Positions 37,832 to 62,166 are shown, numbered from the stretch's first letter. The stretch: DNA of 64,000 bases from an uncultured archaeon (GCA_963817525.1 CAWFOU010000001.1:736001-800000), one strand, 5' to 3'. A program made the numbers and translations. The notes: generated by a model not told the origin, from the sequence alone.

Positions 37832-37904
37832 AGCCCGTTCGTCTAGTGGTCAAGGATAGGGGCCTCTGGAGCCTCTGACCCAGGTTCGAATCCTGGACGG
37901 GCTA
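37832..37904 (+). tRNA. tRNA-Gln (CTG)
   Basis: AGCCCGT...GGGGC-CTCTGGA-GCCTC...CCAGG-TTCGAAT-CCTGG-ACGGGCT-A. Confidence 0.96.
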
Positions 37905-38051
37905 TCTCTCCAATTCCTGCTCTTTTTGCACTTTGTGGTCTGATTCAGGTCGCGCTTGCCCGAAGGAGTCCGCGCGGACCGTCGGTTTGTTGATTCCAGA
38001 ACATGTTACCACACACCTTAATTTCGACCATGCATTCCAGGAGAGGTTGCA

Positions 38052-39362
38052 ATGGATGTCGATTCCCAAAGAGGTATCGGCAAATCTGCCGGTCTTGCCG
38101 TAGCCGCCGCCCTTCTCGTTATCGCCGGGCTCATAGCTTTCGCAGGGACCACGAAAACTCCAGCAAGCATCTCTTCCAATCAATCGTCCCCCGCTTCGAG
38201 GGCCAGTCAATTCACGTTCTTCAATTCAACAGTCTCTCTGGACGGCCTACAACTTGGCGTGGCTCTGAATACGACGTCACTTCCGGCAGGCCAAGGTTTG
38301 TCAGCCGATGTGTATCTCACGAACACTCTGCCCAGGAACATCTCGCTCCCCGCGAATCTCACAGCCTTCGGGGGGGATTCGACCCTCGAGTCTTTGGGCC
38401 GTGGCTATCAGTGCGATGGGGCGGGGCTTCTGGGCGTACTCAATTTTGGAGTTTACCGGGGACACTATACCGCAGAGAATTTCTCACAGGAGCCCGCTCC
38501 TCTCTTGATGGAGGCTCCTGTTCCTGGCAGTTGTCCAAACCCGTACTACTACGTCCAATCGCAAACTCAGGGTTTTGAATTTGCGCCAAACAGCGACATG
38601 GCCACGCTTTCAGGGCAGAAGACGACTGAGATGCATCTCACTCTCCAAAGTATCAACTTCACAGCGGTTCCATACACGTTCTGCTGTGAGACGATTATTC
38701 AGAACGGATCGACAACGACTTCGCGAAGTGGAATGGACCTTGGAGGGTCATGGTCGCCCTCCGAGGGCGCTAGAGGTTACTGGACGATGCCCCCTAACGG
38801 CACCGCCATCCCTTCATTTGGAGGAAGCAACATACTTCAGACCGTTAATCAGGTCCACGACCTCTATCACGAGTTCGGCCCGGGTCTCTATACGATTGTG
38901 GCGGAGGACTTTTGGAACCAGACCGCGTTCGCGTATTTTGGGGTCCACCCCAACTCTTCCTCTTCGACAATCGCTTGCTTCGAAACAGGGTTCCCTTCAA
39001 CCATCTCCGTAAGGCTCGTTCAAGACGCAACGTTGCAGCCTGCACAAGGGGTTCATGTCTTCGCTTACGAATTGAACCCTTGCGGTGCGTCGAATCAGGT
39101 AGACCTTGGCGTCACGAACTCCACTGGGTATGCTCCTATTCAGCTGAACTGGAACGGAAAATACACCGTCGAAGTCGACTACAATTCCCAAACAATCTTT
39201 GGTTTCTCAGGTCAATCTTTCAATCTACCGACGCTTGACACCCTGAGCGTCCCGTCAGGGATTGTAACAGAACAGACCAACGGTTGCCTGCCAGATGCTT
39301 GTCTCCCATACACGACGACGACAACGGCTAACATCACCACTGCTCTACCGGGCGGTCCTTGA
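38052..39362 (+). CDS. Membrane-anchored secreted protein, Ser/Thr-rich with paired cysteines
   Basis: N-terminal TM, many NxS/T sequons. Confidence 0.7.
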   Translation: MDVDSQRGIGKSAGLAVAAALLVIAGLIAFAGTTKTPASISSNQSSPASRASQFTFFNSTVSLDGLQLGVALNTTSLPAGQGLSADVYLTNTLPRNISLPANLTAFGGDSTLESLGRGYQCDGAGLLGVLNFGVYRGHYTAENFSQEPAPLLMEAPVPGSCPNPYYYVQSQTQGFEFAPNSDMATLSGQKTTEMHLTLQSINFTAVPYTFCCETIIQNGSTTTSRSGMDLGGSWSPSEGARGYWTMPPNGTAIPSFGGSNILQTVNQVHDLYHEFGPGLYTIVAEDFWNQTAFAYFGVHPNSSSSTIACFETGFPSTISVRLVQDATLQPAQGVHVFAYELNPCGASNQVDLGVTNSTGYAPIQLNWNGKYTVEVDYNSQTIFGFSGQSFNLPTLDTLSVPSGIVTEQTNGCLPDACLPYTTTTTANITTALPGGP

Positions 39363-39426
39363 CTGGATGGATTAGTACCTATTCGGGTGCGAACAACGTT
39401 CAGGCGAAGATACCACCAATGAGTGT

Positions 39427-39475
39427 CAAATTCCACGTAAAAGCCCCTGAACAGGTGCAGCTCCTGGGCGGCCTA
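39427..39475 (+). repeat. Cassette boundary site 1 (class A, degenerate core)
   Basis: CAAATTCCACGTAAAAGCCCCTGAACAGGTGCAGCTCCTGGGCGGCCTA. Confidence 0.85.
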
Positions 39476-39617
39476 TTTTCTGTTGGCGCTCTGGTGGTGC
39501 CGAATGGAGTTCTGCTCCGGAGTGGGCACTTCTCGAGTCTTCCCGGTCCGACTCTGCCAAATCGAGTAAGGAGACTCTAACGTTCGGTTTTCGGACGCCT
39601 ACTCAGCTGATGGGATC

Positions 39618-40040
39618 CTACGTCGCTAATGGATCGACAAACTTCATCTCACGACTTTTGAACCGCAAGCTCTGAAGGCTCAGCAGATCCTGATCGTGGG
39701 TCAGCATCGTTTCGATTCCGTTCCTGAGGTAGCAACCTACAATCAGAGCGTCTCTTCCCCCCAAGTTGAGCTTTGTTCCCAAGTCCAACGAAAAAAGCGA
39801 AACCGTCTTGGTGAGATTGAAGAAGACTGTCCGCCGGTCCTTGACGAGCGTACGAAGTTTCAATCGCCCGTCTGCAGGTGACATTCCTCTCTTGAATACC
39901 AGGGTATGATATGATTCATGTACCACGGTAGGGTTTAGCGCCCAAGCTTGGGTTGACAAGATGGAGTCTCTAGCTTTCACGTGCTCGTCGGTTGTTGGAT
40001 CCAAGGCGTGGACTAGGATGCTGGAATCTATGCCATTCAC
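39618..40040 (-). CDS. vapC: VapC PIN toxin
   Basis: IDSSIL, VHE, GRDAL, THDQD. Confidence 0.88.
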   Translation of the reverse strand: MNGIDSSILVHALDPTTDEHVKARDSILSTQAWALNPTVVHESYHTLVFKRGMSPADGRLKLRTLVKDRRTVFFNLTKTVSLFSLDLGTKLNLGGRDALIVGCYLRNGIETMLTHDQDLLSLQSLRFKSREMKFVDPLAT

Positions 40041-40276
40041 TTAGCTCGCCAGATTTCTTTGATTTCATCTTCTTTGACCAGCTGCGGCTTCCTCGTTCTC
40101 TTAGGGTCCCAAGACATCGTCTCGCGGAGCGAATCCTCTGTTTCCTTTGCCTTTTTCACGGTGACAAAGCCCTTCTCCTTCTTGAACGTGACTACGCTGC
40201 CTTCCACTAGACCCAATTCATCGGCGATGTCCTTGGGTAGCACTACCCTTCTCTTGTCGTCCAGGATAGAGGTCAT
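40037..40276 (-). CDS. vapB: AbrB-type antitoxin
   Basis: LDDKRRVVLPK.I...LGL.EG. Confidence 0.88.
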   Translation of the reverse strand: MTSILDDKRRVVLPKDIADELGLVEGSVVTFKKEKGFVTVKKAKETEDSLRETMSWDPKRTRKPQLVKEDEIKEIWRAK

Positions 40277-40501
40277 GTCCCACCACATCCGGTGGGACAA
40301 ACTAATATGTGTTTAGGCGCTCCTGCTACCCGGCCAGAGCATCCACGACAGCCAGACCCTGGTCAAGGGTCCGATCAACGCCAACCATGAATACCCTCTC
40401 ACCATCTACGGCGCCCTCCCCCAGGAGGATTGATTTCTCCTATACAGTGATGATACAAATCTAGGCACCGAGTTGAAACTCAGCAGCACCTCAGAGGAGT
40501 G

Positions 40502-40551
40502 CAAATTTCCGCCTAATAGCCCCTAAACAGGTGCAGCCCCTGGATGGGCTA
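40502..40551 (+). repeat. Cassette boundary site 2 (class A)
   Basis: CAAATTTCCGCCTAATAGCCCCTAAACAGGTGCAGCCCCTGGATGGGCTA. Confidence 0.92.
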
Positions 40552-40798
40552 CCTATTTTGACCTCTATTGGTCAAAAGAGACAGCGTTGACGCTGTTACT
40601 AGGTAAAATGCCACAGATTCGGGTCATTTCACAACCAGAGCCACGAACTAGACGATTTCATCCTCACCGAGACAATGGATTCGAACCTTACTGAGGGATG
40701 AAGCCATCTCGAATCCGAAGAGGCCCGCCCCTGAACGCGTTTTCAAAGCGGATTCCGGGAAAGCTCTTGCCCACCCTATTCTTCCAAGTTGCAAGACT

Positions 40799-41134
40799 CT
40801 ACTTCGTAACACCTGGGTTCTTGGACATCAGCCATCGCTCGCCCCAGGACTTCATTTCGTATAGGGAATCGCTCAACTCGCGGCCCCTCTCAGTCAAGGA
40901 GTATTGGACTGAGATTGGCGATGTCTCCAAGACCCTCCTCTCGAGGATGTCTTGCTCTGCCAGGTGCTTGAGCGATCGTGAAAGCGTCTTGGAGCTCACG
41001 TTCCCCATCGCACGCCTGAGCTGGTTGTACTTCAAAGGCTCGTCATGAAGGTACCTGATAGCGATCATGTTCCATTGGTTGCCAAGCATCTTCATCGTCG
41101 CCACTGCAGGGCATATTGACGCATCGACGTGCAT
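40799..41134 (-). CDS. HxlR-family regulator
   Basis: Closely similar to 32934-33308. Confidence 0.9.
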   Translation of the reverse strand: MHVDASICPAVATMKMLGNQWNMIAIRYLHDEPLKYNQLRRAMGNVSSKTLSRSLKHLAEQDILERRVLETSPISVQYSLTERGRELSDSLYEMKSWGERWLMSKNPGVTK

Positions 41135-41302
41135 TGTCACCTCAGGTTTGTGTCGTGTTCTCCGTGTCGCCTTCTGTGTGATTTCGTTTAGAACCCTCCC
41201 TTTGTACTGCCTGGAGCCGGGGTCGCCACGCAGTGCCTGCATAACAATACGGTGCGGCTGAGGGGGCCGGCCGCCTTGCGAGCGATGGCTACCCAACCGG
41301 CA

Positions 41303-41935
41303 TCAACGTTCTGGCGCCGCATTTTCACGCCGCGGCAGGAGCATCAAGTCGGCCGCCTCTTCGGCATCCCTGAGAAGCGTCTTGCGCGGCGTGCCTATCA
41401 GCGCACCCATGGTAAGGCCACGAGCAAAATCAACGACCTGGCTTGCGCGGATGGCCACGGGAAAGTCGGACGGGATTTCGCCCGCGCTCATCGCGTCCCG
41501 GAAACGACCTTCCACTAGTCCTACGGCGTGAGCGGCCGCGTTCTGTAGGAACTGCCGGACCTCAGCATCGTTCACGAGCGGCGCGACGCACTCGAGAAGA
41601 CATCCGCGAGCTGATCCCTCCTGGGTCGCGGTTTCTACGGCGTTCCTCATGAAGGCGGCGAGCGAGTCGCGAAGAGTGCGCGGCGAGAGGAGTGCCTTCG
41701 CAGCGAGAGCCCCTTTCGTCTCTGCGTACGCCCTAAGGGCGCGCAAGAACAACGTCCGCTTGTCTCCGAAGACGGAATACAGGCTCGGCCGTCCCACGCC
41801 CATCCCTGCGACGAGGTCGTCGATCGTCACTCCGTCGTAGCCCTTCGACCAGAATACCTGGATCGCCTTTTCCAGCGCGAACCTCTCATCGAAGCTGCGC
41901 GGCCGTCCACGCGGCCTGGCGTCATTTTGCAACAT
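41303..41935 (-). CDS. TetR-family regulator
   Basis: RGRPRSFD, FWSKGY, SLYSVFGDK. Confidence 0.93.
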   Translation of the reverse strand: MLQNDARPRGRPRSFDERFALEKAIQVFWSKGYDGVTIDDLVAGMGVGRPSLYSVFGDKRTLFLRALRAYAETKGALAAKALLSPRTLRDSLAAFMRNAVETATQEGSARGCLLECVAPLVNDAEVRQFLQNAAAHAVGLVEGRFRDAMSAGEIPSDFPVAIRASQVVDFARGLTMGALIGTPRKTLLRDAEEAADLMLLPRRENAAPER

Positions 41936-42208
41936 TTAGTTTAAATCTCCTGGAGAAGGCCATCGCACCGATATAAAAACCGAATAGTTCGTAATTAGCA
42001 AGCTTACCCTGGCCTCGCGGGGCCTCACGACTCGACCTTCACCGTTTACCACGGAGGCGCCCATGGAACATTCGATCGCACTCGTCACCGGTCGGCGCAA
42101 AACGCCGGAAGGCCTACAAGATTGCCGAGTTCGTTGAGGGTGACTCACCGGTGCCGTCAACGCACTTAGCTCATCAGATCAAGTGTCGACGCATTTCGCG
42201 TACTGCTT

Positions 42209-42967
42209 TCAGAGTTGCGACGCACCGCCATCGACCGGAAGTTCGGCACCGGTGGTGAAGGTCGCGTCGAATGCGAGGAAGAGAACGGCCTTCGCAATTT
42301 CCTCCGGCATCCCAAAGCGCTTCATCGGATTAGTAGCGATCGCCTGCTCCCTGACATGGGCGGCCACGCCTTTCTCGGGAAACACTTTGCCGATGATCGG
42401 CGTGTCGATGGGACCGGGCGTTACCGCATTGACGCGAATCTCCCGAGGCAGAAGCTCAGCGGCGAGCACGCGAGCAAATGAGCGCAGCGCGGCCTTGGAC
42501 GCTGCGTAGGTCGCTTGGTTGGGACTTCCCTTGACGTTTGCGATGGAGGTCGTGAGGACGACGGCGCCCCCCCGGTTTATCAGCGGCGCGAACTTCTGCA
42601 CCGCGAAAAACGGTCCTTTGGCGTTCAGATCGAACATCTCGTCGTACATGGCCTCGGTCGTGTTTTCGAGAGGGGCAAAGAGGGCAAATCCGGCGTTGGC
42701 GAAGAGCAGGTCGAAGGTGCCGAACTCGGCCTTCACCCGAGAGGCGAGGGCGTCGATGTCCTTCAACGAGCGCGCGTCGCTGGGAACCACGATGGCGTCC
42801 TTTCCAATCTCTTTCTGCGCCGATTCCAGGCCGGCGTGTGACCGCCCCGTCACCAGAACACGCGCACCCCCATCGAGGAGCATCTTCGCCGTGGCGAGCC
42901 CGCTGCCGCTGGTGCCGCCAGTGATCACGACTTTCTTTCCTTGGTACCGTTCCATGTGAGTTGTCAT
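42209..42967 (-). CDS. Short-chain dehydrogenase/reductase
   Basis: TGGTSGSG, ANAG, YAASK, PGPIDT. Confidence 0.94.
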   Translation of the reverse strand: MTTHMERYQGKKVVITGGTSGSGLATAKMLLDGGARVLVTGRSHAGLESAQKEIGKDAIVVPSDARSLKDIDALASRVKAEFGTFDLLFANAGFALFAPLENTTEAMYDEMFDLNAKGPFFAVQKFAPLINRGGAVVLTTSIANVKGSPNQATYAASKAALRSFARVLAAELLPREIRVNAVTPGPIDTPIIGKVFPEKGVAAHVREQAIATNPMKRFGMPEEIAKAVLFLAFDATFTTGAELPVDGGASQL

Positions 42968-43045
42968 TGCGAGGTTAGGGTTGCTTTGCCTAATAATTAA
43001 CTGTTTAGTATGATAATCTCACGCGGAGGCCGCTGTCAAGGAATG

Positions 43046-43086
43046 TTTGAACTAGTTATTTCCATTTTGGAACTAGTTATTTCAAA
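43046..43086. promoter_or_regulatory. Tandem imperfect palindromes, putative TetR operator
   Basis: GAACTAGTTATTTC occurs twice upstream of the SDR gene. Confidence 0.5.
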
Positions 43087-43135
43087 ATACCTTAGGACCC
43101 CGAGACCTGCCGGGCCCGCCATCGGCCGAAGACTG

Positions 43136-43185
43136 CAAAATTCCACCTAAAAGCCCCTAAACAGGTGCAGCCCCTGGACGGGCTA
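43136..43185 (+). repeat. Cassette boundary site 3 (class A)
   Basis: CAAAATTCCACCTAAAAGCCCCTAAACAGGTGCAGCCCCTGGACGGGCTA. Confidence 0.95.
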
Positions 43186-43289
43186 ACTTATCTCCTCAAT
43201 TCCGCCTCTATTCGCGATTCTGAGCATAAATGAGGCCACGCTATCCCCAAGAGCGCATATTGTTGCCCTGAGATGAAATGCTGGACATA

Positions 43290-43317
43290 GGTTCTTTGCG
43301 CCTCCGCCGGGGCATTT
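43290..43317 (+). repeat. 28-bp direct repeat resembling the tRNA-Glu 3' end (second copy 44138-44165)
   Basis: GGTTC(T/A)TTGCGCCTCCGCCGGGGCATTT. Confidence 0.85.
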
Positions 43318-43356
43318 CGCTCGCACGCGAGCGCTCAGACACAATGGATTTCGTAA

Positions 43357-44031
43357 TTATCCGCAGGTGTTGTAGACAGTGTTGATTTCGCCGAAGATCC
43401 AAGTCTCGTTAGAGATGAGCCAAGCACCCCCGACATCGACATATGAGGCGCCCAACCTTACGCTTTCTGCCCAAGGTTGAGTAAGATTCGCACCGCTAGA
43501 AAAAGCCGTGATGGTAGGACCGGATTCGCTTCCCTGCGCGTTGAACGTAGAATTCACGGTAGTTTCCCCCTTGACATTTGCAAAGACTCCAGGGCTAAAG
43601 TCCGTGAAGTTCATGGTGCCGGAGCGTGTCGAGTTGAACATCACATGATACAAGATGTTGATGTTGTAGATACCTGCGTATGCCCCGCTAAAGCCGTTAG
43701 GACTGCATACGAGATTGAGCGTCGCGTTGCTTTCATATTGGGCAACCAGCGCAGTCACATTTTGTGACTGTTCGCTCTGGAGGTGAGCGGCAAAGGCGCT
43801 CATGACCTCCTGGCTGGAGTTAATCGTCAACGTGGTCGTGCTCACCATGATTGTAGTCTGCGTGTTTGTTTGGTCAACCGTCGTAGTAGTAGTTCTGATT
43901 GAACCTGGACTGACGAGAGAGTAGGCGATTCCCGCGCCGATCAGCAGTCCGACGAACAGCAGGGCGACGGCAGTACGACCGACAGCGCGATGAGCGGTCT
44001 TGCGGGCCATCCGAACGTCGGTCCTGAGCAT
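43357..44031 (-). CDS. Membrane-anchored protein with Thr stalk and possible NTF2-like domain
   Basis: TM segment, TTTTT tract, ...GGAWLISNETW. Confidence 0.7.
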   Translation of the reverse strand: MLRTDVRMARKTAHRAVGRTAVALLFVGLLIGAGIAYSLVSPGSIRTTTTTVDQTNTQTTIMVSTTTLTINSSQEVMSAFAAHLQSEQSQNVTALVAQYESNATLNLVCSPNGFSGAYAGIYNINILYHVMFNSTRSGTMNFTDFSPGVFANVKGETTVNSTFNAQGSESGPTITAFSSGANLTQPWAESVRLGASYVDVGGAWLISNETWIFGEINTVYNTCG

Positions 44032-44200
44032 ATGCCCGGCCCCATTAATACGGTTCGACAGAATGTTCGAGAGGCCCTGCCCGAGCTCCGCTACGCTTTG
44101 TCTAAAATGAAGTTGCAGGGCAATCGCCCATCATAAGGGTTCATTGCGCCTCCGCCGGGGCATTTACCCGTTTTCGCCCTGAACCCGACTATGGCAGCGC

Positions 44201-44250
44201 CAAATTCCCGCGTAAAAGCCCCTAATCAGGTGCAGCCCCTGGACGGGCTA
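44201..44250 (+). repeat. Cassette boundary site 4 (class A)
   Basis: CAAATTCCCGCGTAAAAGCCCCTAATCAGGTGCAGCCCCTGGACGGGCTA. Confidence 0.95.
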
Positions 44251-44477
44251 CCTATTTTAGCCTCTGTTTGCCTTATACGCCATGATTTACACTAATCCCT
44301 CGTAGAAAGCTTCAATTCGACTATATCACGATTCGATTTTCGGGACGACGCGTACCCAGCGCCGTCTTACGTGAGAGCCTACTCTCAATATTCATAAGAT
44401 TTCATAGTGCCGTGATTCTTAAAAATTGTTTCGTGAGCAACATCTCTATCCTTCGCCTTCTCTCTCCTACGACCAGC

Positions 44478-53002: not shown

Positions 53003-53733
53003 CTATAGTATGTTCAGGTCGCTCGCTGCATGATAAGATGGAACCAACGGACGGAATCCGAGACTACGAATTTTTTGAGCGCTAACCAGGCCGCTCCAAG
53101 GGTTTGTCAAAGGAGTCACTGGATCTGCAAGCTTCGCGGTTTGACCCGTCAGGCGGATGACCTCTTGGAGAGTAATCGGCGAGTCATCGGCGACGTTGCA
53201 TATCTCACCGCCCATTGCAGAGACACCCATTGCCAGCTTCACGGCTTGTGCTATGTCCAGATGGTGCACCATATGCAACCTAAATGCCGGATGCAGATTC
53301 ATCCGCTCAAAATACGGAATCGATTCCGGCAGATGCGGGTCCCCAGCGCCGTATACGAAAACGAAGCGCAGGATCCGAACGTCAAGTTGTTTCGCCGCGT
53401 GCATGCCGAGTAAGAGTTTTTCCGAAGACGCCTTGCTCGCGGGGTAGGCAGCCGATGGACTAACGTGATCGCTTTCTAGGCCAGGCGCGGCCTCATTGTT
53501 GTAAACATTGCTAGTGCTTGAAAAAACAAAACGGATCCCTGTGTTAATTTGCGAAGCCGCTTCGGCTAAATTTCTTGTGCCGACCTCGTTAACACTTTTG
53601 ATCTTTTCAAAATCCTGACTGCGAAAGAAAGCCGCAAGGTGCACTACGGTGTCAACGCCGTCAAGGGCGCTCTGCAGGCTTTCACGCTGCAGGATGTCGC
53701 CCATGAAAGTCTCCGCCCCTTTGGCTTTGGCCT
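53003..53733 (-). pseudogene. NAD-dependent epimerase/dehydratase, 5'-truncated
   Basis: VHLAA, YPASK; Rossmann GxxGxxG motif absent. Confidence 0.8.
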
Positions 53734-54125
53734 TCCTTACGGTCTCGTGAACCGGCTCCTCAAACCATTCGGTCTGACTCGAAGCTCCTGGTCCGTCCTC
53801 TACCAGGTCAACGGAACCGGGCGAATCTCTCAGAAGGCGCTTCAGGAGGACCTTGGCATAGAATCAGGAAGCATGGCCATAGTTGTAGACGGCCTCGTCC
53901 GGAAGGGTTGGCTTGGCCGGACCTCAAGTGAGAAGGACCGCCGCGCTAACGATCTGGAGCTCACTCCCAAGGGTGCCGGCGGTGGAAGACTGTCCCAGAC
54001 ATAGCTTCGGTCATGAGAAAGGAGATCATGCGTGGCGTCACGGAAGAAGAAGAGCAACTAGCAGTGGGGCCGTCCTGAAGAAGTGTTCCTCGAACCTCGC
54101 GAAGAGCATCGCTCAAACGGACTAA
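53734..54125 (+). pseudogene. MarR-family regulator remnant
   Basis: LKPFGLT, DRR...LELTPKG; no start, frameshifts. Confidence 0.75.
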
Positions 54126-54202
54126 TCGTCAGGGAACACCGTTGGAGCTGCCTTGGGAAGTATTGCATGAAGTAACGAGCTGTCCGCCCCGACGGGCAGA
54201 AT

Positions 54203-54241
54203 TGATTCGTACCTAATCAGATGCCGCCCCTGGACGGGCTA
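54203..54241 (+). repeat. Cassette boundary site 9 (class B)
   Basis: TGATTCGTACC-TAATCA-GATGCCGCCCC-TGGACGGGCTA. Confidence 0.9.
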
Positions 54242-54274
54242 ACTTGTTAGCTCAAAGCCTGTCGATTGGCTACC

Positions 54275-54646
54275 TTACATGACCCGGACTTTTGACTTTG
54301 GGAGAAACTTCAGGAAATCCTTGTCGCCAGTCCAGACCGTTGCGCCATACCTCTTGGCAGACGACGCAATAAGCGCGTCCAAGAGGTCTTCCTTGGTTGG
54401 CTTCATCCTCGCGGCTTCTTCTGCATCTGCCCTGATGAAAGGTGCGACCTCGACTCCCGCAATCTCGAGAAACTTGTCATAATTTGCTGAAGACATCTTG
54501 GCTGTGAAATATCCCCACAGGATTTGGAGGTGGCTTATCGCTGAGACATAGAGTTGTAAGCCTGTTCCCGACACCCGGAGCATCTCCGCGCGAGTGCTCT
54601 CCCTCTTCTCGTCGCTAAGAATCGAAGTGTCTAGAAAGACCTTCAA
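54275..54646 (-). CDS. vapC: VapC PIN toxin
   Basis: FLDTSIL, DALIA, TGDKDF. Confidence 0.88.
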   Translation of the reverse strand: MKVFLDTSILSDEKRESTRAEMLRVSGTGLQLYVSAISHLQILWGYFTAKMSSANYDKFLEIAGVEVAPFIRADAEEAARMKPTKEDLLDALIASSAKRYGATVWTGDKDFLKFLPKSKVRVM

Positions 54647-54887
54647 TCAAACCAGACCTCGCTTGCCTGATGTGGCTCTTGATCTTGCTCATGTCCCCGG
54701 CTAGGTTGTCAAGCGCCGCCAGAACCATTTCCACATCAACGTCAGAACCAGAGACCTTCTTGATCATGATCCGTTCGTCTCGCGTCTCCTCGAACACCAC
54801 GCTGTCCCCTGGCTTGATCCCGGTCCTCTCGGCGATCCTCTTTGGAATTGTCACCTGCATCTTCCGCGTGACTTGGTACTGCCTCAT
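54615..54887 (-). CDS. vapB: AbrB-type antitoxin
   Basis: VTRKMQVTIPK.I....GIKPGD. Confidence 0.9.
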   Translation of the reverse strand: MRQYQVTRKMQVTIPKRIAERTGIKPGDSVVFEETRDERIMIKKVSGSDVDVEMVLAALDNLAGDMSKIKSHIRQARSGLIEGLSRHFDS

Positions 54888-54995
54888 AGTACTACTTTCT
54901 TACTGTCAGCTGGTATAAAAAGACCCACCCCAGTCGTGGCATGAAAGCCAGGTTGCTCGGCATAGAGGGACTTGCGGCCCTCGGTCATGCGAGCA

Positions 54996-55045
54996 CAAAT
55001 TTCCGGCTAAAAGCCCCTAAACAGGGTCAGCCCCTGGACGGGCTA
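54996..55045 (+). repeat. Cassette boundary site 10 (class A)
   Basis: CAAATTTCCGGCTAAAAGCCCCTAAACAGGGTCAGCCCCTGGACGGGCTA. Confidence 0.93.
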
Positions 55046-55199
55046 TTCGCTCAATTGCGCCTCCGTTGACCGAACGCCGCAGTAATCTTACTATAATGTG
55101 CGTTTAGCGGTCACAACCTATCTGTCAAATCTGTGAGCAAAAGAAACCTTGGCAATGGCGCACATAATATTTATAAGCACGCATATTATATGCATGCAT

Positions 55200-55586
55200 A
55201 TGCAATCCGAAATAAGGTACAAGTTGGGAATGATAACTCTGTTCTGTAGACACGTTGCCGAGACTAAGAGTTTCTACATCAATAAGCTGGGGCTGACTGA
55301 GATAAGAGAAATGACCTCACCTACTTTCGCCACTTTGATGACCAACGGGGGCAGCTTGATAGGTCTGCAAGATGTCAAGACGTCTCTGGGTGGACAAACG
55401 AGTACTCACGGTGAAGTGGAACTTGGACTAGAAGTCGAGGATGTCGACGCGACATACGAGAAGTGGAAGGAAAACAACTCTGAAGTGACCTCGCCTCCTG
55501 TCGATCTCCCCTTTGGGCGCACCTTTCAGGGAAAGGACCCTGAGGGACATCTGCTTCGGATATACAATACAAAGAAGCGTCAGTAG
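55200..55586 (+). CDS. VOC/glyoxalase family protein
   Basis: FY...LGL, VEDVDA.Y, PFG.....DPEG. Confidence 0.9.
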   Translation: MQSEIRYKLGMITLFCRHVAETKSFYINKLGLTEIREMTSPTFATLMTNGGSLIGLQDVKTSLGGQTSTHGEVELGLEVEDVDATYEKWKENNSEVTSPPVDLPFGRTFQGKDPEGHLLRIYNTKKRQ

Positions 55587-56044
55587 TGGTGATAACAACG
55601 AAGCGAGAGGATACGAAATACTGGATTATCGTCGCATCCAGGGACCACGTTCAAAGAGGCGTGGAGGAAGGCATCTGTCAGACCTGTCACGGTAGGGGGG
55701 CACCATTGAGGAGGATGAGTGAGGGAGACTGGGTCGTATTCTATTCATCGAAGGAAAGATATGATGGTGTTGAGAAGTGCAGGAAATTCACGGCAATCGG
55801 GAAAGTTAAGAATGACCTTGTCTATCAGGTTCGAATGAACGAAGATTTCGCTCCTTTCCGTCGGAGTGTAGAGTTCTTTCCCTCCTCGGAGGTCCAGATT
55901 GAGCCGCTGATTCCATTTCTTTCTTTCATCGCGAACAAGAAGTCATGGGGATACGTATTCAGGTTCGGCCTGACCCAGATTCCCAGAAACGATTTCCTGG
56001 CGATTGCTTCGAGAATGCTTCCGGCCCTTCAGGAGGTAGTTTAG
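55586..56044 (+). CDS. EVE-domain protein
   Basis: YWI.VASRDHV, CHG, GD.VVFYS, WG..FRFG. Confidence 0.88.
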   Translation: MVITTKREDTKYWIIVASRDHVQRGVEEGICQTCHGRGAPLRRMSEGDWVVFYSSKERYDGVEKCRKFTAIGKVKNDLVYQVRMNEDFAPFRRSVEFFPSSEVQIEPLIPFLSFIANKKSWGYVFRFGLTQIPRNDFLAIASRMLPALQEVV

Positions 56045-56048
56045 GGGA

Positions 56049-56546
56049 TTGGAGGGCAAACGCCCGGTCAAGTTTTCCAAGGCAAGGCCCGAGGAGAGCC
56101 CGGGTTACATGTTCTGGCAGACGAGCAATCTGTGGCAGCGGAAGATGGTCAAGGCGCTGAAGCCTACAGGCCTGACGCCTGTGCAGTTAGTTCTCCTGGC
56201 GGGGGTGGCCTGGCTCGAACGGGGATCCGAGCCAATAAGCCAAGTCAGGTTGGCCCGTCAGGCAAAGACCGACGTGATGATGACCTCTCAGGTACTCAAA
56301 AAACTGGAATCTAGGGGGCTGGTGAGCAAGAGACCAAGTGAATCAGATACCAGAGCTAACGCCATCACATTGACAGAAAAGGGGGCAGAGAAGGTCGCGA
56401 AAGCATTGATAATCGCGGAGAAAGTTGACTCGGACTTTTTCCAGCCTTTGGAAGGGAAGCATGACGAGTTCCTGACGGCGCTGGGAGCATTGACCAAAGC
56501 AAACGACCATGAGGGAACAAAAAATGACATTTCACCACAAGAATAG
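56049..56546 (+). CDS. MarR-family regulator
   Basis: SPG...WQ, GLT.VQ, DTRA..I.LTEKG. Confidence 0.9.
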   Translation: MEGKRPVKFSKARPEESPGYMFWQTSNLWQRKMVKALKPTGLTPVQLVLLAGVAWLERGSEPISQVRLARQAKTDVMMTSQVLKKLESRGLVSKRPSESDTRANAITLTEKGAEKVAKALIIAEKVDSDFFQPLEGKHDEFLTALGALTKANDHEGTKNDISPQE

Positions 56547-56642
56547 TTCTTGCAAGGAGAGCTCAAGTCGGCCGCCGCCTCGTGGGTTCGTCACCTGTCA
56601 TCGTGACTTCCGATGGCCCGCCACCTAAACATCACGATGTGT

Positions 56643-56681
56643 GGATTCGCACTTGAATAGGTGCGGCCCCTGGACGGGCTA
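56643..56681 (+). repeat. Cassette boundary site 11 (class B)
   Basis: GGATTCGCACT-TGAATA-GGTGCGGCCCC-TGGACGGGCTA. Confidence 0.92.
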
Positions 56682-56716
56682 TCTTCTTAATTCTAACTTG
56701 GCGTGGGGCGTGTCGC

Positions 56717-57193
56717 ATGGCCGCAGTTCGGAAGAAGAAGGCGTACGAGAAGTATGCTTGGGTAATCCCATTCGTGATGGGGCTATTTTTCATGCTCTCG
56801 ATGGCCGTGACCTTCCTTTCGCCAGTAATCCTCACCGGTGCCGAGGGCGCCGTCGAGAGCCTCACAGGACTGACGTTTTCCCAGTTGGCCGCGTCGAATC
56901 CAGGCGTCGCCAACTACATTTACCATCTCATCAGAATCCTCGCGATCTTCAGCTCAGGTCTCGGGGCCTTCTTCGCGGTCGTATCGGCGACGGCCTACAG
57001 GAGGGGAGAATTGTGGGCCTGGTACCTGACGTAGGTCGTCCCCGTGCTCTTCCTGCTCGACATTGCCAATGACTATGTCGCGTTTGGATATGTGGACGTT
57101 AGTTCGATGTTCATTGTCGCGATTTTGGTCCTTGGTCTCCTCCTACCCTACAGAAAGTTCTTCCCCATGAAGCAGCCTTCGGACGCTTCATAG
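56717..57193 (+). pseudogene. Four-TM membrane protein with in-frame TAG at 57032
   Basis: Hydrophobic frame continues after the stop (..WAWYLT*VVPV..LLLPYRKFF). Confidence 0.7.
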
Positions 57194-57232
57194 CCGGTAT
57201 CGCCTTCGCGGGCGCCTGCGCCCTGCCAAGAT

Positions 57233-58217
57233 CTAGGCACGGGGACTCTCGTGGCCAATCGTGATGACCACGTTTCCTGCCTTCTTCCCTGTGTCCACAT
57301 ACGCGTGAGCCTCTGCGATCCTTTCCAGAGGATACTCCCTATCGATCACTGACCTTACCTTTCCGGATTCGATGAGGTCTTTCAGGAAGGCCATGTCTTC
57401 GGGCTTGTACGAGGCCGCCCCGCCGATCACTCTCTTGCCTCCCGAACCTAATAGCTTTCGAAGAAGTTGCGACAATCCCGGGTTCCCCATGAGATAGAAT
57501 CCGTTCTCCTTTGTCGACCTCAAGCATGTGGAGAAGGGAGCCTTGCCGATGACGTCAAAGATGACATCGTATGTCTCGCCGTTCTCACCAAAGTCGTCCT
57601 TGGCATAGTCTATGACCTTGTCTGCGCCTATGGACCGGAGCATGTCCAGTTTTCCGTCCGAGTCGACCGCCGTCACTTCCGCCCCTGACGACTTGGCAAT
57701 CTGCACGGCAACGGTGCCTATGCTCCCGCCAGCCCCGATGATCAAGACCTTCTGTCCCATCTGGATTTTCGCCATTCTGAGGAAGTGCACCGCGTGCAGC
57801 CCCCCAAGGGGCATCGCCGCAGCTTCTTCGTAGGTCATGTTGGGAGGTTTCGTCGATATCAGTCCCTTTGCGGGCAGGCAGTCATATTCAGCATAGGCGC
57901 CCAGGTGGAAGCCGGTCAGAGCGAAGACCTGGTCGCCCGCTTTGAACCTGCTGACGTTTGTGCCCACAGATTCGACCTCTCCGGCCAACTCTTGCCCCAA
58001 GATTGCCCTTCTCGGTCCTCGCAACCCAAACCCTATTCGCGCTGCCAGCCACAACAAGATGGGCATCTTGAATCTTCGAATCTCGCAGTCCCCCCATAGT
58101 CACCGTTGTCGCGTGAACCCTGACCAGCACTTCATCGGCCTTGGGTCTGGGTGTCTCGACCTCTCTGAGCTGAAGGACCTCAGAAGGCCCATATCTCGTG
58201 CACACTACTGCTTTCAA
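57233..58217 (-). pseudogene. MDR/quinone oxidoreductase-like protein, frameshifted near 58090
   Basis: MKAVV..YG; GAGGSIG, GNVVI in a second frame. Confidence 0.8.
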
Positions 58218-58338
58218 CTGATGAAACGCGATTGCCGTCCGCCCCTATATGGGGTCGGTCCTCTCCCGGCTGTCGCCCATGCCGAGCCTTTTGAGAGTCG
58301 TCTGCCTTTGTGGAATCTAGATTTTCCCTAGAGCAGAT

Positions 58339-58377
58339 GGATTCGCGCCTATTCAGGAGCAGCCCATGGACGAGCTA
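58339..58377 (+). repeat. Cassette boundary site 12 (class B, degenerate)
   Basis: GGATTCGCGCC-TATTCA-GGAGCAGCCCA-TGGACGAGCTA. Confidence 0.85.
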
Positions 58378-58596
58378 TTTCCGCTCGCGCGGTAGGGACT
58401 GCTGGATAGAGTTCTCCTCCGGAGTGGGGACTTTTCGAGTATGCCAAGTCCGAGTGAGGAGATTCTGGCCCTAAGCATTCGGCCTTCAAAGTCCTACTCA
58501 GCTTGGGATTTTGTGTCGCTAACGCATCGACGAACTTCGTCTCACGATCTTTGAACCGCAACCCCTGGAGGCTTACCAGCAGCCTACGAGCTCACT

Positions 58597-59580
58597 TTAC
58601 GATACTCCCGGAGTGACTGACGTTACAACCGAAGTTGCGGTTGTTACGGGCGTTGCAATGGCCGCTGCCGCGCCTGGTATCATGTCGAATGTCTCATATA
58701 CTGTGATCTCCCCTTCTCTCACTTCAATGATGGAACCCTCCAGCGGCCTCAAGGTGTCCGGGATGTGGAAGTGTAGCTCTCCGCCTAGCGGGAGTTGAAC
58801 CTCGTACTTAGGAGCCCCATTACCGTCGATGGTGAAGAGTCGCTCCCCTTTGCAGTACACGGTGCACAGCTGTAGCTGCCTGTTGCGTCCTTTGACAACG
58901 AGTGCAAACTCGCTGGCAGGATAGGGCGACACGACTGGCTCTCTTATGACTTCCAGCGTGATGTCTAGGTACAGCTTCATATCCGTGAGGACCATCACCT
59001 GATCGCCCGTCTTGACCTCGGCTCCCTCCTCGTCGTTGGGGTAGACGACGAAACGGCCCGCTCCCGTTACCCTCTCGATCCTTCCTTTGACGATCTTTGA
59101 CTCGGAGGTTATGACCGTCGTACCGTCTTTCTGAACCACCTCCATTATGGGCTGTTCCAGTTTGACTCCTTGCGCGGCGGCGGTCGGGCTCATCGCGACG
59201 AAGTCATCAATCTTCTTCAGTATCTTCTTCTCAACCTCCACGTTCCAAAGCATCTCCCCGACATCAAGGGGCAGGAATAGTTCAGAAATCAGCAGAGTCT
59301 CTACGGTGGCGACGCCTATGTTCTGGACCCATTTGCCTATCCCCACCCTTACCGAGAAGTTGTTCGGCTCCCCCTGGATCAGTATATCGAGAGCCCTTTC
59401 AGAAGTAATTACTTCCCTGAGGAAACCGCCCTTCTGTGCCTGTATCAACATGCCTCCCTGAGTGGCCCTCGGGGTTTGGAGCTTGAAACCATCATCCTGG
59501 AGATAACGGACTATGCGGTCCCTAAGTCCGACCAGATCGGTATTTCTTCCTTGATATCGGACAGTCTTGTCGGCTAACAT
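58597..59580 (-). CDS. Hypothetical protein, probably two domains
   Basis: 327-aa ORF with normal composition; no motif recognised. Confidence 0.65.
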   Translation of the reverse strand: MLADKTVRYQGRNTDLVGLRDRIVRYLQDDGFKLQTPRATQGGMLIQAQKGGFLREVITSERALDILIQGEPNNFSVRVGIGKWVQNIGVATVETLLISELFLPLDVGEMLWNVEVEKKILKKIDDFVAMSPTAAAQGVKLEQPIMEVVQKDGTTVITSESKIVKGRIERVTGAGRFVVYPNDEEGAEVKTGDQVMVLTDMKLYLDITLEVIREPVVSPYPASEFALVVKGRNRQLQLCTVYCKGERLFTIDGNGAPKYEVQLPLGGELHFHIPDTLRPLEGSIIEVREGEITVYETFDMIPGAAAAIATPVTTATSVVTSVTPGVS

Positions 59581-59662
59581 GCTCTCTGGCCACCATTGAT
59601 ATCAACGGCTAAGTGCATCTAGCAACAATCTTCTAGAATGAAAGGCCGAGCCCTCGAGAGTC

Positions 59663-60412
59663 TCATTTCCACTTTGTTAGTATCTCTTCCCTCTTGAAGG
59701 TGGCGATGCTCAGATAGAAGAGGAGCAGGTCTGCCACCAGGAAAATGCCTGACATGATGAGCAGATTGATCGTGGTCAATTGAATCACCCCGATCTCCGT
59801 CAGCACGTAGATGATGAAGAAGGGGAAGACCATCACTCCGGTTATCTGCTGCACGCTTCGAACGTCGTTGGCGCGTGCGGATAGGATGACGGTCAGCTCG
59901 ACTGAGAGAATGCTAGCGAGCGGCGCGAGGACGAGTAGGCTCACTCCGAAGCTCCAGTTTGGATAGTAGAGATAGCCTAGCCCGGCGTGAGTGACTAGGT
60001 CTATCAGGACCATGAAGACTACCGAGCTAGCCCAGATCGCGGCAATCGGCGGGATGAACGAAGCGATGCTCTTTCCCAGCAGAATCTCACCGTCCGTCAT
60101 GGGAGTTGCAAGCAGCGGTTCGAGGCTCTTCTGGATCTTCTCGCCGACTATACTGTACGAGGCAATTCCAGCCGGGAGACTCGCCGCTAAGATCACATAC
60201 CAAAACGAAAACGCGTTCAGAAACGGGGCAACGGATGCTGATATGGCCCCTGTGCCAGCGACGCTTTCGATCGCAACAAGTACCGCGGGAAATCCCAATG
60301 CAACACCGAATGGGGACACCATCGTAGCGTAGAGGACCCCCTTCCTCCTCTTGAAAATCTCAAAATCCTTCGACGCGACCGACCACGCGTTCTGCAGGTC
60401 CACTTCTCTCAC
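59663..60412 (-). CDS. ABC-2 family permease (copy 3)
   Basis: VGEKIQKSLEPLLATP...REEILTKWK. Confidence 0.88.
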   Translation of the reverse strand: MREVDLQNAWSVASKDFEIFKRRKGVLYATMVSPFGVALGFPAVLVAIESVAGTGAISASVAPFLNAFSFWYVILAASLPAGIASYSIVGEKIQKSLEPLLATPMTDGEILLGKSIASFIPPIAAIWASSVVFMVLIDLVTHAGLGYLYYPNWSFGVSLLVLAPLASILSVELTVILSARANDVRSVQQITGVMVFPFFIIYVLTEIGVIQLTTINLLIMSGIFLVADLLLFYLSIATFKREEILTKWK

Positions 60413-61329
60413 TGGCTCCTGACCAGTTTCAGGTACACGTCCTCCAGGGTCGAACTCGCCTCCGTGACGAACTGGATACGGCCTCCCGCGGTTACGATTG
60501 CACTCATAATGTCAGGGTTCTCCTTCTCAGGATCACCCACCCCTATGACGAGCTTGTTGCCCTCGCCCACCTCGACGCCTCCGGTTGCGACCATCTTCGC
60601 TGCAGATATGATCACGTTGTTGACGCTCTCGAGCTTGACCACAATCTTCCGGCCGCTGGCCGACCGTTCGAGGTCTGCCGGGGTGCCCAGGGCCATCAGC
60701 TTGGTGTTCAGAATCGCGATCCTGTCGCAGATCCTCTGTGCCTCGTCGAGATTGTGCGTGTTGAGGAAGATGGTCTTCTTCTCCTTCTTCAGGTCGAGTA
60801 TGAAGTCCCTGACCGTCTTGGACGCTTCCGGGTCGAGGTTGGCAGTAGGCTCGTCCATGAACAAGACCTGCGGATCGTGAATGAGAGCGCGCGCTATGGC
60901 GAGCTTCTGCTTCATCCCCTTGGAGAAGGTTCCTGCCGCCAGATCCTTCTTATCCCATAAACCAAGCAGCTTGAGGAAGTATTCTATCCTCTCACTTCTC
61001 TTCGGTTCTTCGACCTTGTAGTATCTGCCGTAGAAATCCAAGTTCTTGTACGCGGTGAGTTCCTCGTACAGACCAACGTTGTCCGGAACCAGTCCTATGA
61101 CTCTCCTGATTTTTGGTTGATCTGAGCTTTTTCCGATGTCGTATTCCCCAATCTTGGCGGTACCGCTCGTCTTCGATATCAGACATGTCAGCATTCGTAC
61201 AGTGGTGGTCTTCCCGGCGCCATTGGGTCCGAGAAACCCGAAGACTTCCCCATCGTCGACGCGGAGGGTAAGATCGTCGACTGCAGTAAGGTCCCCGAAC
61301 TTCCTCGTAAGGTTCTCGGTCTCAATCAA
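60409..61329 (-). CDS. ABC ATPase (paralog of 50279-51202)
   Basis: GPNGAGKT, FSKGMKQK, MDEPT. Confidence 0.93.
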   Translation of the reverse strand: MIETENLTRKFGDLTAVDDLTLRVDDGEVFGFLGPNGAGKTTTVRMLTCLISKTSGTAKIGEYDIGKSSDQPKIRRVIGLVPDNVGLYEELTAYKNLDFYGRYYKVEEPKRSERIEYFLKLLGLWDKKDLAAGTFSKGMKQKLAIARALIHDPQVLFMDEPTANLDPEASKTVRDFILDLKKEKKTIFLNTHNLDEAQRICDRIAILNTKLMALGTPADLERSASGRKIVVKLESVNNVIISAAKMVATGGVEVGEGNKLVIGVGDPEKENPDIMSAIVTAGGRIQFVTEASSTLEDVYLKLVRSQ

Positions 61330-61413
61330 CTTGAGTTGGTTTCGACTGTCCGCGAGATGTGATATATGAATTGAGGCACAGTATGGAAGCCTGACCACTC
61401 TAGTCGACCCCGC

Positions 61414-61452
61414 GGATTCGCACCTTGTTGGGTACCGACCCCGTCCGGCCTA
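61414..61452 (+). repeat. Cassette boundary site 13 (class B, strongly degenerate)
   Basis: GGATTCGCACC-TTGTTG-GGTACCGACCC-CGTCCGGCCTA. Confidence 0.65.
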
Positions 61453-61483
61453 TCGCTCCCTGTTCCCGATACAGCGGACCGCT

Positions 61484-61996
61484 TCAGCGCAGTCTCTTGA
61501 CCATGAATCGAAGTGCCACCTTGGCGCCTCCGACCCTCTCTACAGCCTTCCCGGACTCGGTGAATCCGGCCTTTCTGTAGAAACTGATTGCCCTCTCATT
61601 GGTCGCTTCCGTCTTCACGCGGACGGAATAGAACCCGCGCTTCCTCGCCGAGTCAAGGGCCTTGCGGAGGAGCCTCGATCCGACCCCCTTTCCGGTCGCA
61701 CCTTCCAGCACCGCTATGCCTGAGAGCTCCCCTTCCCTCGCTTCAACCTTTCTTATGCTGGAGAAGCCGATGATTCTTCGTTCCTCCTCAGCAACCATCA
61801 TCTGGATGGTGGGGGTGGCAAGTCTCTTTTTCAAGAACTCCTCGGAGGCGATTTCCCTGATTGCTCCATCCGTGGCCCCCGCGAACCCAAGCGCGCTGGC
61901 TCCCGCCTCCTTCCACGCCTCGACTAAGAAGACGGAAAGCTTCGAGACGTCGTTTGGTCTCGCTGGTCTTATCACAAGAGAGGTTGGTTTCTCCAT
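61484..61996 (-). CDS. GNAT acetyltransferase
   Basis: GKGVGSRLL, N.RA..FY.K.GF. Confidence 0.9.
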   Translation of the reverse strand: MEKPTSLVIRPARPNDVSKLSVFLVEAWKEAGASALGFAGATDGAIREIASEEFLKKRLATPTIQMMVAEEERRIIGFSSIRKVEAREGELSGIAVLEGATGKGVGSRLLRKALDSARKRGFYSVRVKTEATNERAISFYRKAGFTESGKAVERVGGAKVALRFMVKRLR

Positions 61997-62145
61997 CCTC
62001 AGAGGGTCAGGCGGCGGTTTCGCAACCAAACTGGGCCATCATAAGCCTCTCCGGAATTAAGGATTCTGACGGTCGAAGGGCACAAGTCCAAGAAAACCAC
62101 CGGTATGCTGTCCGATTCGACGCATTCAGGGCTAACTTGGAGACC

Positions 62146-62166
62146 AAACAGCCCCTGGACGGATAA
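62146..62166 (+). repeat. Cassette boundary site 14 (partial)
   Basis: AAACAGCCCCTGGACGGATAA. Confidence 0.65.

Follow-up and report, generated by a model that had tools for sequence, protein, structure and literature searches.

The window analysed here is a 64,000-nt stretch of one strand of an uncultured archaeon (GCA_963817525.1 CAWFOU010000001.1:736001-800000), and its central feature is an intact tRNA-Gln(CTG) gene followed on its 3' side by an array of small gene cassettes. The tRNA gene, called by ARAGORN on the + strand, adjoins the genes for ArgRS and tRNA-Arg. Thirteen sites in a single orientation, together with one partial copy, split 24 kb behind it into 14 cassettes with a unit size of 0.7-3.5 kb, and the last 13 nt of the tRNA, CCTGGACGGGCTA, form the core common to all sites. 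The source genome is a 2.82-Mb metagenome bin of 15 contigs (95% complete, 8.75% contamination). Below it is called G000, with contigs C1 and so on, the window being C1:736001-800000; other genomes of the genus are G0xx and individual loci L0xx. In the following list, sites carry the type of their left arm (A, B or C), the end of each of cassettes 1 to 13 is the last A of GGGCTA in its site, and open reading frames (ORFs) are given with their Pfam matches. Cores termed Arg-type or third-family belong to other site families of the same genome.

37832-37904, +: the anchor, tRNA-Gln(CTG), from ARAGORN and sequence; it also heads arrays in L002, L005, L007, L010 and L084.
37905-39475, +: cassette 1; ORF 38052-39362 (+, 436 aa, no Pfam match); truncated type-B left arm 39369-39390 ahead of the type-A site 39427-39475.
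39476-40551, -: cassette 2; PIN toxin 39618-40040 (-) and MazE/AbrB-type antitoxin 40037-40300 (-), from Pfam; type-A site 40502-40551.
40552-43185, mosaic: cassette 3; ORF 40698-41048 (+, no Pfam match), TetR 41303-41935 (-), SDR 42209-42967 (-); Arg-type core CCGGGCCCGCCA 43110-43121, then type-A site 43136-43185.
43186-44250, -: cassette 4; ORF 43357-44031 (-, 224 aa, no Pfam match); type-A site 44201-44250.
44251-47771, -: cassette 5; P-type (E1-E2) cation ATPase 44478-46988 (-), from Pfam; degenerate type-A site 47722-47771.
47772-48561, +: cassette 6; esterase fragment 48030-48485 (+), from Pfam; type-C site 48520-48561 with a tRNA-like loop (CGAAT).
48562-49303, +: cassette 7; VapBC-like pair, a MazE-type antitoxin and PIN 48823-49245 (+); type-A site 49254-49303.
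49304-52738: cassette 8; third-family core CCCGTCGGGCCCGC 49431-49444; ABC-2 permease 49533-50282 (-), ABC ATPase 50279-51202 (-), ORF 51469-52305 (+, no Pfam match), winged-helix regulator 52298-52657 (+); type-B site 52700-52738.
52739-54241: cassette 9; embedded Arg-type core 52920-52931; epimerase fragment 53003-53704 (-), MarR 53639-54004 (+); type-B site 54203-54241.
54242-55045, -: cassette 10; PIN 54275-54646 (-), MazE-type antitoxin 54615-54887 (-); type-A site 54996-55045.
55046-56681, +: cassette 11; glyoxalase/VOC 55149-55586, EVE 55586-56044 and MarR 56049-56546 (all +); type-B site 56643-56681.
56682-58377, -: cassette 12; zinc-type (medium-chain) dehydrogenase 57233-58066 (-); type-B site 58339-58377.
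58378-61452, -: cassette 13; ORF 58597-59580 (no Pfam match), ABC-2 permease 59663-60412, ABC ATPase 60409-61398 (all -); degenerate type-B site 61414-61452.
61453-62166, -: cassette 14; GNAT acetyltransferase 61484-62029 (-); partial core CAGCCCCTGGACGG 62149-62162, after which the array leaves no further trace.

A repeat search of the window returned a direct-repeat family in register (D1, 11 copies; D2, seven; D8, 12), and this search and a reading of the sequence agree with an earlier note on this DNA, which had placed the motif at 14 positions. The gap-free alignment of the motif to the tRNA 3' end that the same note described also holds, with AGGT-TCGAAT-CCTGGACGGGCTA in the tRNA and AGGT-GCAGCC-CCTGGACGGGCTA in the sites. 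As a control for chance, CCCTGGACGGGCTA with at most two mismatches has 13 matches in the window, every one on the + strand, where 0.62 are expected and 13 were reached in 0 of 100 shuffles. These 13 include the tRNA and a probable chance match within an ORF (38236-38249), and the degenerate sites ending at 39475 and 61452, which have more than two mismatches to CCCTGGACGGGCTA, fall outside the count. All sites are intergenic relative to the ORFs called in the window, as had been claimed, and their orientation is constant regardless of the orientation of the neighbouring genes. The G+C content of the array is 55.6%, against 60.7% on both flanks.

The cargo consists of three PIN+MazE-type pairs, two ABC-2 operons and other accessory genes. 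Most of the gene labels proposed earlier are borne out by Pfam, namely the PIN+MazE-type pairs, TetR and SDR, the P-type ATPase, the esterase fragment, the ABC-2 operons, the epimerase fragment with MarR, the VOC-EVE-MarR set, the zinc-type dehydrogenase and GNAT. The labels 'HxlR' (40698-41048; no Pfam match at E<=0.01) and 'surface protein' (38052-39362 and 43357-44031; no Pfam match) are not. No integrase, transposase or replication family is found among the array ORFs scanned, which are all but ORF 56641-57072. We further note that the tRNA-proximal ends of cassettes 5 and 8 (44251-44362 and 49304-49416) are alike over ~113-137 nt at 88-90%, with different gene content; the shared segment could be a promoter or an arm module.

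The anatomy of the sites was derived from 126 distinct non-tRNA sites from genus genomes and metagenome stretches, comprising 49 of type A, 35 of type B, 13 of type C and 29 others, a few of which are actually intron-bearing tRNA ends. Each recombination site spans ~40-55 nt at the tRNA-distal end of its cassette and has three parts: a left arm with three main types, a short palindrome (GCACCT-nnnn-AGGTGC or CCCCT-aaac-AGGGG) and the core AGCCC-CTGGAC-GGGCT-A. The consensus sequences are CAAATTCCCGCCTAAAAGCCCCTAAAC for type A (49 sites), GGATTCGCACCTAATC for type B (35 sites) and GGGACAAATCGAACC... for type C (13 sites), in which the tRNA-like loop is retained; types A and B have ...CAGG(T/G)GC-AGCCCCTGGACGGGCTA in common. 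The palindrome GCACCT-nnnn-AGGTGC, with six pairs and a four-base spacer, is 68% Watson-Crick over 100 sites, compared with 23-36% in shifted controls. It covaries at one position, which is A-T in type B and C-G in part of type A, and is mismatched there in 25 type-A sites.

Within the core lies the dyad AGCCC-CTGGAC-GGGCT, whose pairs show complementarity in 77-100 of 100 sites. It arises only through the replacement of the T-loop of the tRNA (TTCGAAT) by (G/T)CAGCC, which is seen in 66/126 sites, while a tRNA-like TCGAAT loop is kept in 11. To judge from its sequence, the core may represent two half-sites around a 6-bp spacer, as tyrosine recombinases use. The background match probability is 0.87-0.98 in the core and has dropped to ~0.25 by 60 nt away from it. 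A loosely conserved right arm (TCTCCTCAATTC...CTCTGTTTAC) starts many cassettes and is absent from the VapBC cassette. Folded as single-stranded DNA, eight sites reach -6 to -9 kcal/mol (z -0.5 to -1.8), and equally good folds come from 8 to 59 of 200 shuffles; since single-strand folds are no better than those of shuffles, the sites are not like the attC sites of integrons.

The site family is confined to tRNA-Gln loci. In a whole-genome fuzzy scan and a search with an nhmmer profile, it occurs only at C1:773881-797452 and C1:83346-85478, with C1:83356-85471 as the limits of the second locus in the fuzzy scan; this locus lies directly behind a gene read by eye as an intron-bearing tRNA-Gln(TTG). 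With the profile, which rests on 84 type-A and type-B sites, 18 genome matches are obtained at E<=10, of which 17 are in the two tRNA-Gln loci, all 17 on the + strand. The family is therefore tied to these two tRNA-Gln genes, which have common 3' ends, and its restriction to the two loci indicates that it is not a dispersed repeat, in keeping with what the earlier note had proposed. The tRNA-Gln(TTG) gene itself (C1:83256-83369; L001:5256-5369) seemingly has two introns, in the D-arm region and after position 37, and is missed by the default mode of ARAGORN and by Rfam at the gathering score; its homologue in G009 is intron-less, with the UUG anticodon loop visible. A 'tRNA-Pyl' call of ARAGORN was rejected, being a tRNA-Arg in intron mode. 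A free-standing LAGLIDADG_3 gene (C1:82509-83285; L001:4509-5285) ends in or against the 5' end of tRNA-Gln(TTG). It was dismissed as an array enzyme, as it has no counterpart at other arrays.

The family is likewise restricted among relatives. A site 23-mer with at most three mismatches is found in 8/22 other genomes of the genus and in 0/18 genomes of other genera, its matches being always clustered on a single contig and a single strand; a reversed control pattern gives one match. Among 185,579 species genomes, the exact 18-mer occurs in several copies in only three archaeal bins of this group, and as seven single bacterial matches. In metagenome contigs it marks 51 stretches, of which 40 were judged to have true site context by the presence of arms; these 40 have up to seven sites each and six include tRNA-Gln itself. 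Three site patterns were run against viral contigs, where two had no match and the third had nine, none with site context. An order-wide 13-mer scan is blind to analogous arrays in other genera, whose tRNA-Gln ends differ.

Comparison of related genomes indicates that the cassettes are units that change places. The flanks are conserved in G009 and G018, with tRNA-Arg, ArgRS and tRNA-Gln upstream and the sequence from C1:804289 onward downstream, and between these flanks G018 has three sites and G009 two, against the 14 cassettes of G000. This variation in order and content had been predicted in the earlier note, as had breakpoints at the repeats. Across 134 distinct sites (140 collected), compared with 130 nt of flank on each side, 12 junction pairs share the left flank only and five the right flank only, and in every pair homology is lost between -27 and +10 of the core end.

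The breakpoints are further supported by the 741-bp VapBC cassette (48562-49303), which is the best-documented candidate mobile unit. It is 99.5% identical from end to end, over 742 nt, with C1:83445-84185, the second interval of the tRNA-Gln(TTG) array, and further copies in G018, G009, G008 and G014 are 84-96% identical, with different neighbours. The homology runs, in every one of the six copies, from the nucleotide after GGGCTA to ...CCCTAAAC-AGGTGC. The site at the end of the upstream neighbour is of type C in one case, a tRNA-like remnant in another, of type B in a third, of type A in two and decayed in the last.

Other cassettes recur in a similar manner. The ABC operon of cassette 13 has 87-89.5% identical cassettes in G012, G022, G014 and G009, and the TetR/SDR cassette 3 is 93% identical to part of a G009 array. 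The esterase cassette 6 has an 86% identical counterpart in the tRNA-Gln(TTG) array, the P-type ATPase of cassette 5 has a 75% match in a G014 array, and the PIN pair of cassette 10 has 78% matches in G012 and G006. An all-against-all comparison of intervals shows these shared cassettes in other orders across arrays, and the homologue of the cassette 14 GNAT gene in G018 lies on the other side of the next gene. We are therefore confident that the array consists of discrete, re-assorting cassettes bounded by the sites. The presence of the same modules in different orders in related species makes the locus look like a gene-collecting platform without a recombinase of its own.

One array in G009 lacks a neighbouring tRNA. 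It has seven sites (C2:195-210 kb; L003/L004) and no tRNA-Gln gene within 12 kb, and the two tRNA-Gln genes of G009 are on a different contig. A gene adjoining it (L004:3267-4439) is homologous to a gene 5 kb beyond the tRNA-Gln(TTG) array of G000, so a rearrangement or a mis-join is likely.

These features are probably best explained as a tandem array of small non-autonomous cassettes at the 3' end of tRNA-Gln(CTG), moved by site-specific recombination in trans. Conservative site-specific recombination would take cassettes out and put them in, with the tRNA end and a cassette site as partners or else a pair of cassette sites, presumably by way of a circular intermediate. The likeliest catalyst would be a tyrosine recombinase whose gene lies outside the array, be it in the genome or on an element in transit. 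Crossing-over would fall within the site, which would explain why the body of a cassette is inherited as a unit and the adjacent core is not. Serial insertion at the tRNA, as proposed in the earlier note, may have built the array; the comparison with G009 equally fits insertion or loss at internal sites, and the earlier interpretation as a whole is partly supported.

Several observations weigh against recombination in trans by a single enzyme. The Gln-type core stands beside none of the genome's integrase-like genes, two of which have a short tRNA-Ile-type or tRNA-Trp-type core beside them. The frameshifted integrase-like gene 4.5 kb from an array in G009 (L004) was considered as the enzyme and rejected; its block is syntenic with C7:143.5-146.2 kb of G000, where there is no Gln site, and it belongs to a large family present in 20/23 genomes. 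The classical overlap centred on the T-loop is excluded because most sites do not match the tRNA in the 6 nt that precede the common 13 nt. The two 99.5% identical VapBC copies differ at three core positions on each side, and in the triplet L051/L064, L066 and L056/L073 the segment AGG(T/G)GC travels with the downstream cassette, the break lying left of AGGTGC. As read from these alignments, the crossover point is not unique, and exchange may fall anywhere from the palindrome to GGGCTA. An overlap that is long and can be resolved in either direction could account for this, as could recurrent events at one site or homologous exchange in addition, and the spread is as compatible with homologous exchange or recurrent events as with one enzyme. 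The metagenome contigs and soil-run contigs show neither a circular form nor an empty site or an excision joint; the search for circular single-cassette junctions proposed earlier came back negative in them, and terminal redundancy is present in 0/51 metagenome stretches. The sequencing evidence consists of short assembled contigs of four soil runs, which may include the source sample. These contigs bridge five junctions (44250, 47771, 49303, 52738 and 54241) with 0-2 differences, which argues against mis-assembly. Two joints that skip sequence, 37904>48545 and 49286>52725 (with 'GG' between), were set aside as cassette deletions; both reproduce the paralogous tRNA-Gln(TTG) array (L001) and are thus uninformative on excision. 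In the same runs, peaks of depth over the SDR/TetR genes and stretches lacking coverage carry no interpretable signal.

The spread of exchange points over ~30 nt, as opposed to one phosphodiester bond, is also what would be seen if the 40-80-nt sites served as portable homology and general machinery shuffled the cassettes, with no dedicated enzyme active today. The direct orientation of the sites, which permits deletion by loop-out, and the failure to find the cognate recombinase fit this possibility as well. However, homologous recombination of this kind leaves unexplained how each new cassette acquired a site and why the dyad core and the palindrome are conserved well above their surroundings. 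Moreover, GGGCTA is all that the two near-identical VapBC copies have in common at their left junctions, and this is too short for homologous exchange. We consider homologous recombination as the sole agent unlikely.

Recombination in trans implies an enzyme outside the arrays, and the source genome has ~15 tyrosine-recombinase-like genes or fragments, all of them outside arrays. Neither phmmer with seven integrases of the genome nor four rounds of jackhmmer, run against ORFs of at least 80 aa from the window and L001-L074, gave a match in an array; the sole matches are window 164-1387, which precedes the array by 36 kb, and the frameshifted L004:6604-8200, outside the G009 array. The term 'integrase-free', applied earlier to this array, thus holds well outside the window, integrase-family searches of the array loci being negative. 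Among 282 ORFs of at least 100 aa in or within 3.5 kb of arrays, Pfam finds PIN (21), ABC_tran (14), MarR (8) and zinc dehydrogenases. The 25 commonest Pfam families of either ORF set do not include Phage_integrase, a statement that covers single-member families in part. By Pfam, the 95%-complete genome has no match to Y1_Tnp (PF01797) and no serine recombinase (Resolvase). An autonomous element with a Gln-type site was found neither in this genome nor in the viral-contig scans or the fetched loci. The action in trans is thus proposed by exclusion.

Individual candidates were examined and set aside. The ORF at window 164-1387 (-, 407 aa) has a weak Phage_integrase match (PF00589, E 0.009), and its relatives, at 30-43% identity, are scattered over 11/22 genus genomes. 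It is probably part of another integrated element near tRNA-Thr/tRNA-Glu, and was rejected as the recombinase on account of its sporadic presence in the genus and its absence, with this query, from six array-bearing genomes. A 421-aa tyrosine recombinase at C7:342483-343745 (L075, L082) has conserved synteny in G009 and G018, with 83-89% nucleotide identity over several kb and no tRNA or attachment (att) core nearby, and looks like a resident enzyme that is not borne by an element. It too was rejected, as its close orthologues, confined to five genomes with a sixth copy interrupted by a stop codon, show a distribution that does not follow that of the arrays. An ORF adjoining a site in L024 has a zinc ribbon only. 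The absence of a PF00589 match in G006, G008 and G014 does not equal the absence of a recombinase, since a divergent integrase-like family missed by Pfam is present there.

The same searches bear on classical accretion and decay, by which the intervals would be remnants of integrase-bearing elements (virus, plasmid or cryptic) that lost the integrase and most other genes. Arrays formed by re-use of one tRNA att site are already known, as far as the available parts of two accounts describe them (PMC6563490; 10.1101/2020.12.28.424599). Classical cases are present in this very genome, in which tRNA-Leu(gag) and tRNA-Ile are each directly adjoined by an integrase fragment, with tRNA repeats, long or short, in the vicinity, and the 11 sites with a TCGAAT loop have kept a tRNA-like T-loop. 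Against this, a sensitive family profile finds no integrase remnant in any array locus, and the 741-bp two-gene cassette has identical ends in six contexts and never extra genes. The parts of the sites that do not derive from the tRNA (arms A, B and C, and GCAGCC) are conserved across species and metagenomes, unlike the products of decay. We regard accretion and decay as quite improbable here.

Finally, a dispersed repeat of the repetitive extragenic palindrome or miniature inverted-repeat transposable element type, or an element acting as RNA (a tRNA-like processing signal or a terminator), would fit the likeness, read by eye, of the type-A site to a tRNA acceptor/T-arm minihelix and the small AGCCC..GGGCT hairpin in the predicted folds, but is highly improbable given that the family has no copies elsewhere in the genome, is not dispersed independently of one locus, keeps one orientation irrespective of the neighbouring genes and folds no better than shuffles, and that homology between genomes breaks at the sites.

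Recombination of cassettes in trans at a tRNA end invites comparison with integrons, the textbook platform that stockpiles and re-sorts single-gene cassettes, whose reach into Archaea is only starting to be described. Like integrons, the locus is a one-orientation array of small cassettes, each with one site at one end, that re-assort between hosts. It also resembles large chromosomal integrons, in which toxin-antitoxin (TA) cassettes are common, in being TA-rich, with PIN in 21/282 ORFs in or near arrays. Unlike in integrons, there is no intI at the attachment point (the nearest integrase-like ORF is 36 kb off), a tRNA gene takes the place of attI, and the cassettes stand in both orientations with their own regulators. 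Whereas attC sites are conserved in structure, the sites here are conserved in sequence and fold weakly as single strands. The earlier comparison to an integron thus stands for the one-orientation cassette array and fails for intI beside the attachment point and for attC-like folding, two of the three integron hallmarks considered. The array is not an integron; it consists of tRNA-targeted integrative elements with an integron-like outcome.

Cis-mobilizable elements (CIMEs), which go together with accretion in streptococcal integrative and conjugative elements, are stretches of att-flanked DNA without recombination genes that can be moved in trans by the integrase of a related element. The units of the array resemble them in being att-flanked and without recombination or transfer genes. 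CIMEs are one-off decay products of integrative and conjugative or integrative and mobilizable elements, and we know of no large family of tiny CIME cassettes with a dedicated site, nor of CIME arrays of 14. IMEX elements are integrase-free too; they integrate at dif by means of host Xer recombinases and build tandem arrays, whereas the target here is a tRNA end and not dif. Elements of the IS200/IS605 (PATE-like) type would call for a Y1 HUH transposase in the genome, and none was found.

Integrated elements of Thaumarchaeota, in the portion of the report available to us, have a median att of 17 bp and build arrays by re-use of one site; each carries an integrase, including the smallest described, of 2.6 kb (Krupovic et al. 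2019, PMC6563490). The cassettes resemble them in the tRNA 3' end as target, the short direct repeats (13 nt here), the formation of arrays and the host phylum. They differ from the elements so described in that the 14 units here and all units of ~40 further loci are without integrase, and in that each carries a conserved site whose left part is not derived from a tRNA. The array has tRNA-end direct repeats at an intact tRNA and neither an integrase of its own nor a visible remnant of one. In the tycheposon islands of Prochlorococcus, as the accessible text describes them, partial tRNA copies lie between elements, newer arrivals push older ones inward, and tycheposons carry a tyrosine or large serine recombinase and often replication genes (10.1101/2020.12.28.424599). 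The same text regards integrase-free genes of these islands as having ceased to belong to a functional element (10.1101/2020.12.28.424599). The arrays share with tycheposon islands, so far as that text goes, the tRNA anchor, partial tRNA copies, niche-type cargo and 'plug-in' behaviour of cassettes. In contrast to the bacterial tycheposons of that account, they are archaeal, their units have neither a recombinase of their own nor replication genes, and these integrase-free units are themselves the discrete re-assorting entities. Integrons have been reported in Archaea, according to the part of that report we could consult (10.1101/2022.02.06.479319 / PMC9668308). A search of the literature outside subscription journals and supplements found no description of archaeal tRNA-anchored arrays of integrase-free cassettes.

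The array would thus reach an integron-like outcome, a long array rich in TA pairs, transporters and regulators, by another route, through attachment at a tRNA end, sequence-conserved sites and no integrase in cis. Integrase-free, tRNA-linked islets, which would be missed by island finders keyed to integrases, can be a major part of the mobilome. If the recombinase is found, the system would provide a mechanism of accessory-gene flow in the abundant uncultured Nitrososphaerota of soil and a natural case of integrase-free cassettes spreading as a family and not as decay products, along with a compact pair of site and enzyme of possible use in engineering archaea.

The Gln array also holds traces of other site families. 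The Arg-type core CCGGGCCCGCCA occurs inside it at 43110-43121 and 52920-52931, and the third-family core CCCGTCGGGCCCGC at 49431-49444. The TetR-SDR segment of cassette 3 (41263-43088) has a 97.8% identical copy at C7:984374-986198, which is flanked by third-family sites. Together, the foreign cores and this copy indicate that modules pass between site families, and they suggest that cassettes may be mosaics that passed through arrays of other specificity. We tentatively raise the possibility of a genome-wide accessory-gene system, an integron-like gene-capture platform with tRNA attachment, dedicated sites that developed out of the tRNA 3' end to a symmetric core with a palindrome, and a resident, distant tyrosine recombinase, in which parallel Gln, Arg and third families would swap modules.

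The third family, with core CCCGTCGGGCCCGC and ...GAGAACCTGTTCAGGGGCGGGCCCCGTCGGGCCCGCTA, has a three-site array at C7:152674-159949. At each of the loci C7:984286-986206, C7:152674-159949 and C1:1151250, an integrase-like gene of the family invisible to Pfam lies 1.5-7 kb away.

A second cassette array, with a different site family, lies at tRNA-Arg(CCT) on C8:68666-77388 (L085:2666-11388). Three exact copies of the last 16 nt of this tRNA, at C8:72582, 75981 and 77388, follow at spacings of 3.8, 3.4 and 1.4 kb and have non-tRNA left arms, two of them alike. Besides unknowns, the cargo comprises a GtrA-like protein, an amidohydrolase, an HTH_10 regulator and a MazF-like toxin; it is integrase-free. 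In the window itself, outside the Gln array, a further tRNA-Arg gene shows a similar repeat:

35183-35261, -: tRNA-Arg(CCG).
26841-26852, -: second copy of the last 12 nt of tRNA-Arg(CCG), 8.3 kb downstream of it.

The 8.3 kb between the two copies hold no integrase-like ORF, and the sequences after both 12-nt copies resemble the flanks of the C8 array.

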